Below are positions 48,882 through 53,038 of a DNA stretch of 53,186 nt, one piece after another. How positions within the stretch are numbered: the first letter of the stretch is position 1; the number at the start of each line of letters is the position of its first letter. The notes below the pieces were generated by a model. That model made no database searches, was not told the DNA's origin, and saw only the letters and a list, made by a program, of their open reading frames with translations. The stretch is from a candidate division WOR-3 bacterium (GTDB taxonomy: Bacteria > Hydrothermota > Tepidihabitantia > B3-TA06): contig CBFGKC010000016.1 in assembly GCA_965649265.1 (NCBI GenBank), positions 1 through 53,186 on the forward strand. Reading direction: 5' to 3'. A program made the translations under genes and the position numbers.

Positions 48882-50027
48882 CTACTTTATAAAAAGAACG
48901 GCTCTCGTCGTTTTAATACCGTCTTCTCCATTCAAACGGCAGAAATATGTTCCGCTCGGAAGCATATTCCCTCTGGAATCCTTTCCGTCCCAGTTAACCG
49001 TATAGGTTCCTGATGCCTGCTTTCCCCTGAAAAGGGTTTTGACAAGCTGACCCTCAATGTTGTAGATGGTTAGTTCCAGATTTGATTCATTCTGCAAGGT
49101 ATAGCGGACAGTTGTTGATACGCTGAAAGGATTAGGATAGTTCTGAGAGATTGAGAAACCCGGTGCAGGAGTTGGGTTTTCGGACGTGGAGAGGGCTCCC
49201 CCCCAACCTGCGAGCCTTGCAAGCATCCACCATACGGCCTTGCCCTTCTGGTCGCAGCTCGAGTATGTGGTGTGAGCGGCCTCGTCTCCATTGAACTGCT
49301 CATGCTCCACCGGCACCTGGTTTCCTTCATAGTCGTAAGTAGCTTCTTCCCAGGATGTTCCGTTGTACCACCAAGCATCAAGATCGGCAAAGTCGAAGAG
49401 AACTTTTTTATTGTTCATGCAGTAATTGCGAATTTGTTCGTTGCGAAGTTGGCGGTTGTAGCCGCTGCCGCCCGTGGCCTGTGCGTTACCGGTCATGTAT
49501 ATGAATGTTACGTTCGGGAACTGGCTCTCAAGCAGGCTCATGGAGTCGAGATACTCCTGCACCTGTTGCTCGGTATAGCCGTCGACTTGCGTGCACCAGG
49601 ACCACATAGAGAGGTTTATTGTCGGGTTGTGATTCAACACATCGCGAGTCAGATTCATTCCGCCTTCGGTTTGCCAGTAAAGGTCGGGGGTGATGTAACC
49701 TACACTCTCCTGACCGTCGAAAACGCAAAAAGCGCCCGCTTCGGTGGGTAAGCTGCCTGAGCTATTGGCGTAGCCGTACTTTGCATCGGAAGATTCAAGC
49801 CTCTCGAGGCCGACCGTCAGCTGACCGCCGTGGGATGTGTGCGCGTAATGAAGTCTCAGATTCGCCTGCACGGAATCTATCCATGCATCCGGGATCTTTG
49901 AAATATCCGTGCAGTTGTGATCGACAATCAGGTATGCGGGATTGGGCGTCGGGTCCTGAGTGCATGCAAGCATCGCAACAGGGAGAGTAAAGAGTATTAC
50001 CGGGATCAGTACTTTGACTTTCTTCAC
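48882..50027 (-). CDS. Secreted hypothetical protein with FlgD/T9SS-type C-terminal domain
   Basis: Signal peptide; HTSHGGQ and WSWC motifs; QNYPNPF...IYNIEGQLVKTL...WDGKD...SGTYF. Confidence 0.88.
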   Translation of the reverse strand: MKKVKVLIPVILFTLPVAMLACTQDPTPNPAYLIVDHNCTDISKIPDAWIDSVQANLRLHYAHTSHGGQLTVGLERLESSDAKYGYANSSGSLPTEAGAFCVFDGQESVGYITPDLYWQTEGGMNLTRDVLNHNPTINLSMWSWCTQVDGYTEQQVQEYLDSMSLLESQFPNVTFIYMTGNAQATGGSGYNRQLRNEQIRNYCMNNKKVLFDFADLDAWWYNGTSWEEATYDYEGNQVPVEHEQFNGDEAAHTTYSSCDQKGKAVWWMLARLAGWGGALSTSENPTPAPGFSISQNYPNPFSVSTTVRYTLQNESNLELTIYNIEGQLVKTLFRGKQASGTYTVNWDGKDSRGNMLPSGTYFCRLNGEDGIKTTRAVLFIK

Positions 50028-50587: not shown

Positions 50588-51745
50588 TCATGCTTGCATG
50601 CTTTCCTTGTTTTTCACCATGAATCGTTCCTTGAATGCAGGAAGTTCCTTCTTTTTGAAGTAGTCAATTATCGATTGGGCGACTTCGAGCCAGATCAATT
50701 CGTGAAAACGAGAGGATGGAGGTCTCATAAAAAGATGTCCTGTATTCTCATAGTTCGCGGCAAGACAACCTCCGCTGCATTTGCCGTAAAGACCACACTC
50801 GTCGCACTCTATGTCACAGCCCAGAAGCAGCTTTTTTTTCATTCTTAAAAAAGGTACCCGTCTTTTCTCATCAAAACCTTTATAGATATCGCCAATAGGA
50901 TACGCTCCTTTGAATCCACGCGATGAGACGAAACGGTGGCAAGGATATATAACTCCGTCAACGCCTACGCCCAGATAGCCTTTTCCAGCGCCGCATGTCC
51001 CGTCATTTAGATCTTCATTTGAGAATTCCGGGCCGAGCAAAGCTTTGATACGTCCATCCAGTGGGCTGATCTTTAACGATTTTCCTGATTCAATAGACGA
51101 AATCAATAATTCACCGATATCATAAAATTCACTTTCGAATTTCAGCAAATTCTCATCTTTCCACGTCATCTCCTCCACGTAGAAAACCGATATTGACTCA
51201 AAACCTCTTTTCATTAAATATCCTACTCCCTCTGCCGCATACCCGGCAGTTTGAGGAGTAATCGTCATCCGGACTTCTTTAGATTTACTTGCAGAAAGAA
51301 TATTCTCAATATTGCGCTCGACAAGCCTGAACGAACCCTCACCTGAACGGGTTCTTCTGAATGTATCGTGAGCCTCTAAGATGCCGTCGCAACTCAGGAG
51401 TATCCCGAGATCATTGTCTTTCCAGTATTCCGCCGTTTCTTTAGTGAAAGCCACTCCATTTGTGGTTGCAGAGAAACCGATCGATTTCCCCTTGGCCTCA
51501 GCTGCCTTGCGCGCATAAGGAATTATCTCCTTGATATTCTTCATTTCTAGCAAAGGCTCTCCGCCAAAGAACGTAACGTCAACGTGGGTTGTTGGACCGG
51601 AAACATCCTCACTCAGAAGCCAATCGACAGTTTTCTTCGCAATTTCCATCGGCATGGAGTCACAATTCTTATTGCCTTCAAAGCAATATGAACAGGCCAG
51701 ATTACAATTGTTGGTTACACCGAGAGTGATGGAATTGACGTACAT
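50588..51745 (-). CDS. Radical SAM/SPASM domain maturase
   Basis: CNLACSYC, FFGGEPLL, TTNG, S.DG...HD..R; SPASM CGAG...YPCHRF and CDEC....CSGGC. Confidence 0.95.
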   Translation of the reverse strand: MYVNSITLGVTNNCNLACSYCFEGNKNCDSMPMEIAKKTVDWLLSEDVSGPTTHVDVTFFGGEPLLEMKNIKEIIPYARKAAEAKGKSIGFSATTNGVAFTKETAEYWKDNDLGILLSCDGILEAHDTFRRTRSGEGSFRLVERNIENILSASKSKEVRMTITPQTAGYAAEGVGYLMKRGFESISVFYVEEMTWKDENLLKFESEFYDIGELLISSIESGKSLKISPLDGRIKALLGPEFSNEDLNDGTCGAGKGYLGVGVDGVIYPCHRFVSSRGFKGAYPIGDIYKGFDEKRRVPFLRMKKKLLLGCDIECDECGLYGKCSGGCLAANYENTGHLFMRPPSSRFHELIWLEVAQSIIDYFKKKELPAFKERFMVKNKESMQA

Positions 51746-51858
51746 CTATACTCCTTTTCTCCTGGACTTACCCCTCCCCATCCACTCTCTTCATTAAATG
51801 TTTCCGCATTCCCCGATTATGTTTTTCCGATTCCTCTGTACACTCCAGGATGGATGAA

Positions 51859-52290
51859 TCACACCAATCTTTTGCTCAACAACCTTACCGCCTCTTTGAG
51901 CTGCCACCTGATTATTTCCTCCGGATTAGGAGTAATGTTTGAACCTTCCATAGGACAGCCCATTTCGCCACCCTGCTTCTGACAAGTATTGCAGCTTTCA
52001 CACTTTAGACAGTAGTCACACGTCTGGCAACTGGCGCATTTCTGACAGCTGAAGCATGATAGACAAGAAGGACAAGCAGTGTTAATCCCGATGCCATCAA
52101 GCACGTCCAGCGGAGTAAGCACATCGTCTATCTTAGGATAGATGGCGCGAATGGTTGCCAGGACGGTTTCTATTTTTTTTGCATCCCTCGTACCTATTTT
52201 CTTGACAAGGGCTTTCGCCTCACCGGTCTTCCTCTTCGCAGCAAGCTCCTTGGAAAGAGCTCTTGATTTTTTGAGTTTTTTTTCTGCCAT
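51859..52290 (-). CDS. Cys-rich (CXX)11 protein, probable radical SAM substrate
   Basis: ATG 52290 after AAAGGAG with promoter TTGACA-16-TAGAAT; CPSCLSCFSCQKCASCQTCDYCLKCESCNTC. Confidence 0.8.
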   Translation of the reverse strand: MAEKKLKKSRALSKELAAKRKTGEAKALVKKIGTRDAKKIETVLATIRAIYPKIDDVLTPLDVLDGIGINTACPSCLSCFSCQKCASCQTCDYCLKCESCNTCQKQGGEMGCPMEGSNITPNPEEIIRWQLKEAVRLLSKRLV

Positions 52291-52456
52291 GACGCCGCTC
52301 CTTTTTGGATAGAAGGATTGATGCAAAATTCTAATAAAAATTCTTTATTTGTCAAGCATAAAGCTTAACAGTAAGATCAAAGTGACAATGAAACCAAAAA
52401 CAAACCCCATGGAAGAAGGAACTTGAGACTTAATATGTTCTTTAATGGCTTTATGA

Positions 52457-53038
52457 TTAATTGCCTGTCCGGTAACCAACAAAATTATAGAGATATATTA
52501 TTCTTTTCTTATTTCCTGCACTAACAACGTAAGTTTGTATCCAGTCTCCAGCTTGAAGACGCAAAAGTATGATGCAGACCCCATTTCCCTTGTCACCAGA
52601 TTTTGCTGCGTTCATCACGCCGGACCAGGCTTGACCTTTGAATTCGCCATTTTTAGCAATCCAGACACTGACGTCGCCTTTCGTTCCTCCTTCAGAGGTA
52701 GATTTCATGAAATGTACTGCAAAATAATATAGACCTGAAAGAGGCGCAATGAAAACTGAATTATGTCCCCACCCCCCACCTTCATTCGTTAGTTCACTTG
52801 CATAAGTTAACAGAGTAGCATCGCCGGAGCTTTCAAATCTCCAGCCAGTAACGCTAAAAGCGATCGTATCTTGAGTTTTCTTGAGACTCCAATCCCGAAG
52901 AAGTTGGGTACGGAATTTTTCTAGACTCTCTTTATATTCCTGTGGCATTGAGGGAGCCAGCAGAATTTCTTCTTCTCCTCGAAAGTGGGGGGTCTCATCT
53001 GGATTTAGCTTTTTTTTCTTATCATCTGTATCAGGCAT
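52457..53038 (-). CDS. C1q/TNF-like globular domain protein
   Basis: IAFSV...TNEGGGW....FIAPLSGLYYF...KNG...LRLQAGDWI...FVGY matches the gC1q pattern; GGAGG SD. Confidence 0.75.
   Translation of the reverse strand: MPDTDDKKKKLNPDETPHFRGEEEILLAPSMPQEYKESLEKFRTQLLRDWSLKKTQDTIAFSVTGWRFESSGDATLLTYASELTNEGGGWGHNSVFIAPLSGLYYFAVHFMKSTSEGGTKGDVSVWIAKNGEFKGQAWSGVMNAAKSGDKGNGVCIILLRLQAGDWIQTYVVSAGNKKRIIYLYNFVGYRTGN

Follow-up and report, generated by a model that had tools for sequence, protein, structure and literature searches.

What does a bacterium make with a protein in which every third residue of a long stretch is cysteine, and with the radical S-adenosylmethionine (SAM) enzyme encoded next to it? 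The question is raised by two genes on the minus strand, close to the end of contig CBFGKC010000016.1 of a candidate division WOR-3 bacterium (assembly GCA_965649265.1; 2.74 Mb, 96% complete). The whole contig, 53,186 bp in length, was analysed and is referred to below as the window. A preliminary description of this DNA had presented the pair as a candidate new system of peptide or protein modification, consisting of a Cys-repeat substrate and a radical SAM/SPASM enzyme without an RRE, the recognition element typical of enzymes that modify RiPPs (peptides made by ribosomes and modified after translation). The observation of the gene pair was confirmed, and sequence comparisons support the interpretation. 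The answer that we consider probable is that an RRE-independent, ranthisynthase-like enzyme crosslinks a protein with C-[Q/N/E]-[S/T] repeats by several thioethers, the two genes forming a self-contained cassette.

The repeat protein, its enzyme and their neighbourhood

The upstream gene (positions 51,859–52,290, minus strand, ATG at 52,290) encodes the presumed substrate, a 143-aa Cys-X-X repeat protein denoted P0001. Its core (residues 73–103; 51,982–52,074, minus strand) contains 11 Cys at strict period 3 (residues 73, 76, 79, 82, 85, 88, 91, 94, 97, 100 and 103), with the family consensus C-[Q/N/E]-[S/T], and a twelfth Cys, Cys112, lies beyond it; these Cys, as well as the Lys-rich N-terminus that the preliminary description had pointed out, are all seen in the translation. 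The longest period-3 run among 200,000 shuffles of P0001 comprised 6 Cys and appeared once, compared with the 11 observed. No DNA tandem repeat underlying the periodicity was found at the locus, and it is therefore a property of the protein rather than the outcome of a recent DNA duplication. The core is preceded by a Lys-rich amphipathic N-terminal helix (residues 4–20; 52,231–52,281, minus strand), for which the family alignment and co-folding suggest a role as a leader or docking element, and is followed by a conserved C-terminal helix, the follower (residues 123–142; 51,865–51,924, minus strand). The AlphaFold2 (AF2) model of P0001, with a mean predicted local distance difference test score (pLDDT) of 51.7, consists of N-terminal helices, a disordered Cys core (pLDDT below 50 for residues 70–120) and the C-terminal helix, such that the helical tail claimed in the preliminary description is recovered, at low confidence.

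The P0001 family is real but very rare. An exhaustive phmmer scan of 1.84 billion representative proteins yielded 11 relatives (E-values from 9e-38 to 4e-10), and the substrate family comprises 12 proteins beyond the window's own (P0123–P0134). P0001 has no match in Pfam, NCBIfam or PHROGs; among 5.8 billion proteins, a word-indexed search retrieved P0001 and no other, the same type of search with the family alignment gave 6 proteins and nothing new of note, and the ESM Atlas yielded no usable match. The family is conserved over its full length, from the N-terminal helix, with the consensus M-x-x-E-K-K-L-K-K-x-x-A-L-S-x-E-L and an invariant L6, through the motif F-P-x-I-D...L-T-P-x-E, to the Cys ladder, which terminates in C-N-T-C-Q-K and is followed by an amphipathic C-terminal helix that is kept across phyla, with a nearly invariant S139. 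Of the 114 CxxC steps across the family, 68 have Q, N or E as the first residue after Cys (X1) and 70 have S or T as the second (X2), in line with the earlier remark that S, T or K usually precedes each Cys. The ladder is absent from one relative, the 113-aa P0132, which retains the N-terminal part, contains just 2 Cys and may be decayed or frameshifted. The relatives with a named source come from metagenome-assembled genomes (MAGs) of Zixibacteria, Myxococcota and Ca. Methanoperedens. Among 272 genomes of the window's phylum, the P0001 profile matched only in the window's own, and the distribution of the family is therefore patchy; a search with P0002, the enzyme described next, among 41 relatives gave two distant matches only.

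The downstream gene (50,588–51,745, minus strand) encodes P0002, a 385-aa, PapB/CteB-like radical SAM/SPASM enzyme. The CX3CX2C motif of the SAM-binding [4Fe-4S] cluster (C14, C18 and C21) occupies residues 14–21 (51,683–51,706, minus strand), and the SPASM region, residues 251–327 (50,765–50,995, minus strand), contains 7 invariant Cys and a C-H-R-F loop (residues 269–272). All these Cys, namely C14, C18, C21, C251, C269, C310, C314, C317, C323 and C327, are invariant in the 15 rows of the alignment of P0002 with its relatives (A1). The Pfam models Radical_SAM (44.3 bits, cutoff 29.5) and Fer4_12 (34.6 bits, cutoff 22) match P0002, and the SPASM model scores 15.1 bits, below its cutoff of 21.5, although the region still aligns to the SPASM domain of the SCIFF maturase CteB; by these matches, P0002 is assigned to the radical SAM/SPASM superfamily. 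The 385-aa start, with which the protein includes the CX3CX2C motif, is supported by the family alignment, and AAGGAG (51,751–51,756) is located 5 nt 5' of the ATG. A public protein collection contains P0002 only as a 355-aa call (P0003, 92% coverage), short of the full open reading frame (ORF).

The absence of an RRE, likewise noted in the preliminary description, held up. Only 13 residues lie ahead of the CX3CX2C motif, and P0002 is concluded to have no RRE because its alignment with CteB starts at CteB chain residue 96, corresponding to P0002 residue 3. The close relatives of P0002, of about 380–415 aa and 37–67% identity, have no N-terminal extension either.

The pair recurs elsewhere. In the metagenome loci L086/L087, the 150-aa P0123 is encoded 263 bp upstream of, and on the same strand as, the 396-aa radical SAM enzyme P0004. 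In Zixibacteria, P0128 (MCP4583869) and P0010 (MCP4583868), and in Myxococcota, P0133 (MDJ0762061) and P0011 (MDJ0762062), have consecutive NCBI accessions. Seven substrate clusters share the size of their longest contig with a radical SAM enzyme of the close family (1,076,636, 2144, 16,190, 84,691, 1869, 27,766 and 148,175 bp), and the shared contigs of 1869 and 2144 bp have room for little beyond the two genes. In a tree of 120 SPASM enzymes, built with FastTree only and with long branches flagged, P0002 belongs to a 9-row clade (support 97) in which 8 rows have a known Cys-repeat partner. The expectation that close homologs of the enzyme adjoin CXX-repeat genes is thus borne out by one pair seen directly, two with consecutive accessions and seven with same-size longest contigs. 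Two substrates of the P0001 family sit on 1-kb contigs, too short for both genes. No CXX-repeat neighbour was found in 80 listed radical SAM loci, all of relatives with at most 34% identity and hence uninformative for the close family.

The surroundings of the pair differ completely between the two contexts, with no neighbour common to both. In the window, the pair is flanked by a 193-aa ORF (52,457–53,038, minus strand) with a weak match to the C1q domain (20.8 bits, cutoff 23.7) and by a 381-aa protein with a C-terminal sorting domain of the type IX secretion system (48,882–50,027, minus strand), with polysaccharide genes also present downstream; upstream of P0001, about 0.9 kb is left before the contig end. 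In L087, the flanking genes encode SurE, a DUF7689 protein and dihydroorotate dehydrogenase. Neither a peptidase nor a transporter nor PqqD was found in the approximately 10 kb downstream in the window or, in L087, among six tested ORFs that flank the pair at up to 6 kb on either side, such that the preliminary description's statement that none is adjacent is true of the visible context. Because the flanks differ and lack these genes, the unit consists of the two genes alone.

The presumed expression signals are consensus matches read from the sequence. A promoter-like site, TTGACA-16 nt-TAGAAT (52,328–52,355, minus strand), with 11 of the 12 consensus positions matched, lies upstream of the P0001 gene, in a region with 8 promoter-like sites compared with 3.2 ± 1.7 in shuffles, and a Shine-Dalgarno-like AAGGAG (52,298–52,303, minus strand) lies 7 nt 5' of the ATG at 52,290; the promoter and ribosome-binding site attributed to this gene earlier are thereby recovered as sequence matches. 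This ATG is favoured over an upstream TTG at 52,326 because the homologs begin at the same Met. The 113-bp spacer that separates the two genes (51,746–51,858, minus strand) contains the AAGGAG of the P0002 gene, and its coding strand has no terminator-like site. A hairpin in the spacer RNA was considered and rejected, the fold being no better than that of shuffles (z = -0.25). A foreign origin of the pair was not adopted either, its G+C content of 43–45% against 46–53% nearby not being decisive.

The enzyme among known thioether-forming systems

Among the NCBIfam models, P0002 scores highest with PapB (NF047865; 264 bits, E-value 1.9e-78, cutoff 340), followed by QhpD (TIGR03906; 176 bits, cutoff 453), the nif11-type family (174 bits, cutoff 519), the SCIFF maturase (TIGR03974; 170.7 bits, cutoff 425) and the CXXX-repeat maturase (TIGR04115; 162.6 bits, cutoff 350), with much lower scores for the Cys-every-fifth CefA/CefB system (NF038107; 76.4 bits, cutoff 600) and the CrpC type (TIGR04463; 68.3 bits, cutoff 525). 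P0002 is thus under the curated cutoff of every NCBIfam thioether family, which places it outside PapB, SCIFF, TIGR04463 and TIGR04115 as currently defined; the orthologue P0004 reaches 288.2 bits with the PapB model, also below the cutoff. The models of anaerobic sulfatase maturases (anSME; TIGR03942 and PRK models) give 91.6, 70.9 and 57.3 bits, far under the respective cutoffs of 349, 441 and 484, and no sulfatase is encoded among the neighbours tested. We accordingly rejected that identity, in agreement with the preliminary description, which had expected the enzyme to side with thioether formers.

The closest solved structure is CteB (E-value 2e-34). Six residues that line the CteB cavity (F, F, T, S, H and Q) are used to separate thioether synthases in PMC10288494, and the corresponding residues of P0002 are F22, F60, T94, S118, H270 and R271, five of the six being identical; the positions were mapped by hand on the CteB alignment, with the PDB chain numbering 3 ahead of that in the article, and similarity was counted as residue identity. 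By this proximity profile, the active site of P0002 appears to be of the ranthisynthase type. The pair H270-R271 is kept in 13 of the 15 rows of A1, and [H/Q]-R in nine of ten radical SAM enzymes adjoining Cys-repeat proteins. A conserved Arg of PapB has been proposed to bind the acceptor carboxylate, and R271 of P0002 may correspond to PapB Arg372.

Comparison with the known systems brings out both the kinship and the differences. PapA/PapB, the freyrasin ranthipeptide system, is the top curated family not only for P0002 but also for the 9 other tested radical SAM enzymes that adjoin Cys-repeat proteins, and PapB resembles the activity proposed for P0002 in being a SPASM enzyme that installs several thioethers between Cys and side chains in a repeat-type core. 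PapB accepts Cys-to-acceptor spacings of 0 to 6 residues and binds the leader by its RRE, according to its literature, whereas P0002 has no RRE; PapA, with its CX3D motifs, is a short peptide, in contrast to P0001 with its 143 aa, C-X-X period 3 and few Asp. When the core was searched for the CX3D/E substrate motif, P0001 did not conform, residue i+3 being Cys throughout. SCIFF systems (CteA/CteB) come closest in structure and active-site residues and, like P0001/P0002, are two-gene cassettes without export genes, and C, Q, T and S abound in the SCIFF cores of loci L018, L042 and L066, as they do in the P0001 repeat. However, P0002 lacks the N-terminal domain, about 95 residues long, that is present in CteB, and SCIFF peptides comprise about 45–55 aa with six Cys at mixed spacing, in contrast to the 12 Cys of P0001, 11 of them strictly periodic.

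In the second-best curated family, QhpD makes Cys-to-Asp/Glu thioethers in QhpC, the gamma subunit of quinohemoprotein amine dehydrogenase, which stays a protein; unlike in that system, no dehydrogenase subunit genes are located near P0001/P0002. The CXXX-repeat (TIGR04115) and CefA/CefB (NF038107) systems follow the same logic as P0001/P0002, a substrate with periodic Cys and a SPASM maturase, but with period 4 or 5, respectively, in place of 3. These two are characterized here by their NCBIfam names and general background, and our literature search found nothing on either.

The most similar case in terms of substrate size is that of Methanococcus voltae, where the SPASM enzyme CrpC installs ranthionine links in CrpA, a Cys-rich protein of 28.8 kDa (PMC13692751, September 2026). 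The pairs share a protein-sized, repeat-containing Cys-rich substrate and a SPASM radical SAM enzyme; in that article, N-terminal elements of CrpA are described as aiding binding, and the role of the product is given as not known to the authors. CrpC has an RRE, whereas P0002 has none, and CrpA contains 10 copies of a 17-residue motif, each Cys being followed by its acceptor at a distance of about 3 residues, as opposed to the period 3 of P0001. The article's Supplemental Data set 1 lists Cys-rich proteins associated with radical SAM enzymes from all domains of life and may include the P0001 family.

The preliminary description did not recognize the pair as a characterized family, and indeed no Pfam, NCBIfam or PHROGs family covers P0001, and the pair was not found in the literature; a search for period-3 Cys repeats with radical SAM enzymes retrieved no publication, with thin coverage of subscription journals. 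The claim of a new modification system holds insofar as no curated family and no paper retrieved describes this pair, but not as to the kind of system: for Cys-rich peptides and proteins, crosslinking via thioethers by radical SAM enzymes is established, and we therefore speak of a new variant. P0001/P0002 is probably such a variant of the protein-crosslinking kind represented by SCIFF, PapA/PapB and CrpA/CrpC, set apart, by the sequence features available, by Cys period 3, the lack of an RRE and a 143-aa substrate with conserved flanks.

Docking, proposed chemistry and alternatives

The enzyme was co-folded with P0001, three [4Fe-4S] clusters and SAM in three runs, along with three controls. 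The P0001–P0002 runs gave scores of 0.70, 0.71 and 0.64, as against 0.00 for the best control, and shared at least 59% of their contacts, with a pLDDT of 46–50 for the partner. In calibration, 58 of 80 solved complexes attained the mark used, as did 2 of 110 mismatched pairs, counts that hold only roughly here because our own alignments and accompanying ligands were used. The confident interface, which on the P0001 side involves residues 4–20 only, lies against P0002 residues 197–215, 311 and 346–362. The basic amphipathic leader helix is thus predicted to sit between two helices of P0002, and the co-folding, which the preliminary description had suggested as a check, supports binding of the two proteins.

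The gene pair and its recurrence, the cluster motifs, the nearest relatives of P0002, the absence of an RRE and the docking model are computational results; from here we infer that P0001 is modified at all, by what chemistry, on which acceptors and with how many links, and what becomes of the product and what it does. P0002 would belong to the thioether-forming, ranthisynthase-like branch of radical SAM/SPASM enzymes, with three clusters and without an RRE. The P0001 helix would dock in the groove between P0002 helix 197–215 and the C-terminal helix 346–362 by way of a hydrophobic face formed by L6, L12 and L16, standing in for the usual contact between leader and RRE. The disordered core would then be threaded through the active site, where each Cys thiolate may bind the open iron of auxiliary cluster I while the 5'-deoxyadenosyl radical removes hydrogen from a carbon in the side chain of a residue close by. 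X1 (Q/N/E/D) or X2 (S/T/K), in the same repeat or in the one that follows, would act as the acceptor. Each S-C thioether formed in this manner would lower the mass by 2 Da, with up to 11–12 such links per molecule. The product probably remains a cytoplasmic protein of about 15 kDa with both flanks attached, neither cut nor exported, like SCIFF, QhpC and CrpA. Its retention as a modified protein, as opposed to cleavage to a peptide, is plausible because the N- and C-terminal flanks are conserved, neither a peptidase nor a transporter is present in two unrelated contexts, and CrpA and QhpC provide precedents.

Several points weigh against this account. The case for modification of P0001 is one of homology and gene neighbourhood. 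The scores of P0002 below every thioether-family cutoff imply that its reaction could differ from those of the families concerned. Known ranthionine acceptors are often at least 3 residues after the Cys, as in CX3D of PapA and C-X-X-Q/D of CrpA, and the acceptor geometry in P0001 is without direct precedent because residue i+3 is always Cys; the core contains just one Asp and one Glu. The co-folding is confident for residues 4–20 only, without positioning the Cys core in the active site; the fold of P0001 on its own is uncertain, its AF2 model is poor (mean pLDDT 51.7), and the co-folding job differs from those used for calibration. With regard to co-occurrence, P0127 of Ca. Methanoperedens has no identified radical SAM partner, and the enzymes P0012, P0013, P0014 and P0016, which belong to a 13-row clade, as well as P0005, have no identified substrate; an identical longest-contig size is indirect evidence of co-location; and the FastTree tree gives no single clade of all enzymes adjoining Cys-repeat proteins.

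Three other explanations were considered. Twelve Cys in 143 residues, with the CxxC spacing typical of metal ligands, could belong to a protein that mainly binds metal or Fe-S clusters, metallothionein-like or acting as a cluster donor or scaffold; the radical SAM enzyme would then be linked to it functionally, with no thioether ladder, and might receive clusters or electrons from it or make one or a few modifications. The number of modified Cys is not fixed by any result here, and a metal-related role for CrpA is weighed by the authors of the CrpA study (PMC13692751). However, the nearest relatives of P0002 and its active-site profile are those of peptide thioether synthases, the docking helix obtained by co-folding resembles a leader, as one would expect of a substrate bound by its enzyme, and the conservation of Q/N/E at X1 and S/T at X2 would be unneeded for metal binding alone; we regard a mainly metal-binding P0001 as improbable. 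Even less, in our judgment, speaks for a classical secreted RiPP, in which the N-terminal 70 residues as leader and the C-terminal 30 as follower would be cleaved off by a protease and a transporter encoded elsewhere would export a small polycyclic peptide, for example, an antimicrobial one. The layout of P0001, from leader-like helix to core to follower, would suit it, and part of the window's context is unseen as the contig ends 0.9 kb upstream. Many ranthipeptide clusters carry proteases and transporters, but such genes were missing from the stretches surveyed around both pairs, the window and L087 have no neighbour in common, the C-terminal helix is kept across phyla, and two-gene SCIFF cassettes without export genes, of which three pairs of peptide and maturase were seen, provide a precedent for the arrangement.

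The same substrate could also undergo another reaction, namely, formation of sactionine links (S to C-alpha), anSME-like Cys oxidation, epimerisation or C-C crosslinking. In favour of this are the scores of P0002 below all curated cutoffs and the poor prediction of reactions from SPASM sequence similarity, some sactisynthases resembling ranthisynthases (PMC10288494). Nevertheless, five of the six proximity residues are those of the ranthisynthase CteB, the corresponding anSME positions differ, and the anSME models reach only 57–92 bits, so we deem a different chemistry very unlikely. The formation of several thioethers in a protein that is retained whole is, accordingly, the explanation that we continue to prefer.

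Other Cys-repeat proteins and what the pair may mean

A scan of metagenomes with the repeat motif revealed 18 further loci beyond L086/L087. The proteins encoded there range from 72 to 994 aa, contain dozens of C-x-x-C steps and up to 101 Cys, are often encoded two or three in tandem, and have no match in NCBIfam or Pfam. A SPASM enzyme follows on the same strand in 17 of the 20 loci, the other three contigs ending too early; for the nine of these enzymes that were tested, PapB is the top family, all being under its cutoff. Two of the contigs are IMG/VR viral contigs. The largest proteins, of 750–994 aa (loci L097:4087–9312 and L098:3738–8963, the same contigs as viral L106 and L107, and also L089, L093, L099 and L101), combine an N-terminal domain of the phage family phrog_8917 with C-terminal regions of dozens of C-x-x-C steps. 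They are followed by a second Cys-repeat protein and a PapB-like radical SAM enzyme of 440–540 aa, and in L107 the Cys-repeat genes and the enzyme are located between an ORF weakly resembling a tape measure protein and a tail-fibre-like ORF. A phage tail protein may thus be modified by a phage-encoded radical SAM enzyme.

Other arrangements were seen as well. The 460-aa radical SAM/SPASM enzyme of L099:3108–4490 has an N-terminal stretch of C-x-x repeats itself, about 30 residues long and located ahead of the radical SAM domain, and is possibly a fusion of substrate and enzyme. A third small protein, of 110–143 aa, is encoded just before the enzyme in four loci (L090:5989–6399, L091:2856–3266, L100:2308–2739 and L103:6332–6664) and consists of an N-terminal C-x-x repeat and a long, partly helical-looking C-terminus without Cys, the reverse of the order in P0001. 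Bathyarchaeota proteins with 41 Cys in 504 aa (L058:2281–3795) and 31 Cys in at least 400 aa (L083:3–1205) are encoded directly upstream of radical SAM enzymes, the Cys-repeat region of the former being C-terminal with mixed period 3 and 4, and these enzymes group with the phage-type ones that adjoin Cys-repeat proteins. The phage- and archaeal-type enzymes form a clade separate from that of P0002. Monophyly of all radical SAM enzymes adjoining Cys-repeat proteins was considered but is not supported by the FastTree tree, in which they fall into two separate (starred) clades inside a weakly supported 50-row group.

Another clade of SPASM enzymes without an RRE, which share about 30% identity with P0002 and have one member in a genome of the window's taxonomic family, is consistently found beside a conserved protein of 176–314 aa without a Pfam family (L005:2674–3207, L007:2231–2761, L009:5116–5652, L010:2130–2678, L011:5142–5678, L027:3290–3979, L028:3111–4007, L037:3050–3994, L048:3149–3985 and, on the minus strand, L003:2577–3461). 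This partner, with the motifs K-P-V..Y..P.Y-P, P-P-P.P..F-L-T-E.E-A-R and D-G-Y-N..L.V-G-Y-E-Y, may be another family of protein substrates. In an Anaerovorax MAG, the gene directly upstream of an RRE-less radical SAM enzyme (L008:3644–3958) encodes an acidic protein of 104 aa that contains 10 Cys in the C-terminal half and has no match in NCBIfam.

A broader and more tentative idea, on which we would not rely at present, is that period-3 Cys repeats and PapB-like SPASM enzymes together constitute a widespread, undescribed system of protein hardening, with ladder proteins in cells and crosslinking in phages and archaea. The small cellular versions would use an RRE-independent dock for the leader helix to convert a disordered stretch into a rigid poly-thioether ladder, and phages and archaea would crosslink the C-terminal Cys-repeat regions, with up to about 100 Cys, of tail-module or surface proteins. 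If this is true, enzymatic thioether crosslinking would serve as a structural material and not for natural-product making.

For the P0001 family itself, if the chemistry holds, the implications are more immediate. P0001 would have the densest regular Cys spacing yet seen in a substrate of such an enzyme and, neighbouring Cys being at the usual acceptor distance, the ring topology would have to be new. P0002 would be a compact maturase of 385 aa that recognizes its substrate without an RRE, by a short basic helix, which would be attractive in the engineering of peptides and proteins, a field in which PapB is already used. The pair would add a further case, after QhpC and CrpA, of RiPP-type chemistry on a protein rather than a peptide, and the occurrence of the same repeat type in phage tail-module and archaeal proteins, encoded next to related enzymes, suggests a broader structural use of thioethers that is apparently undescribed.

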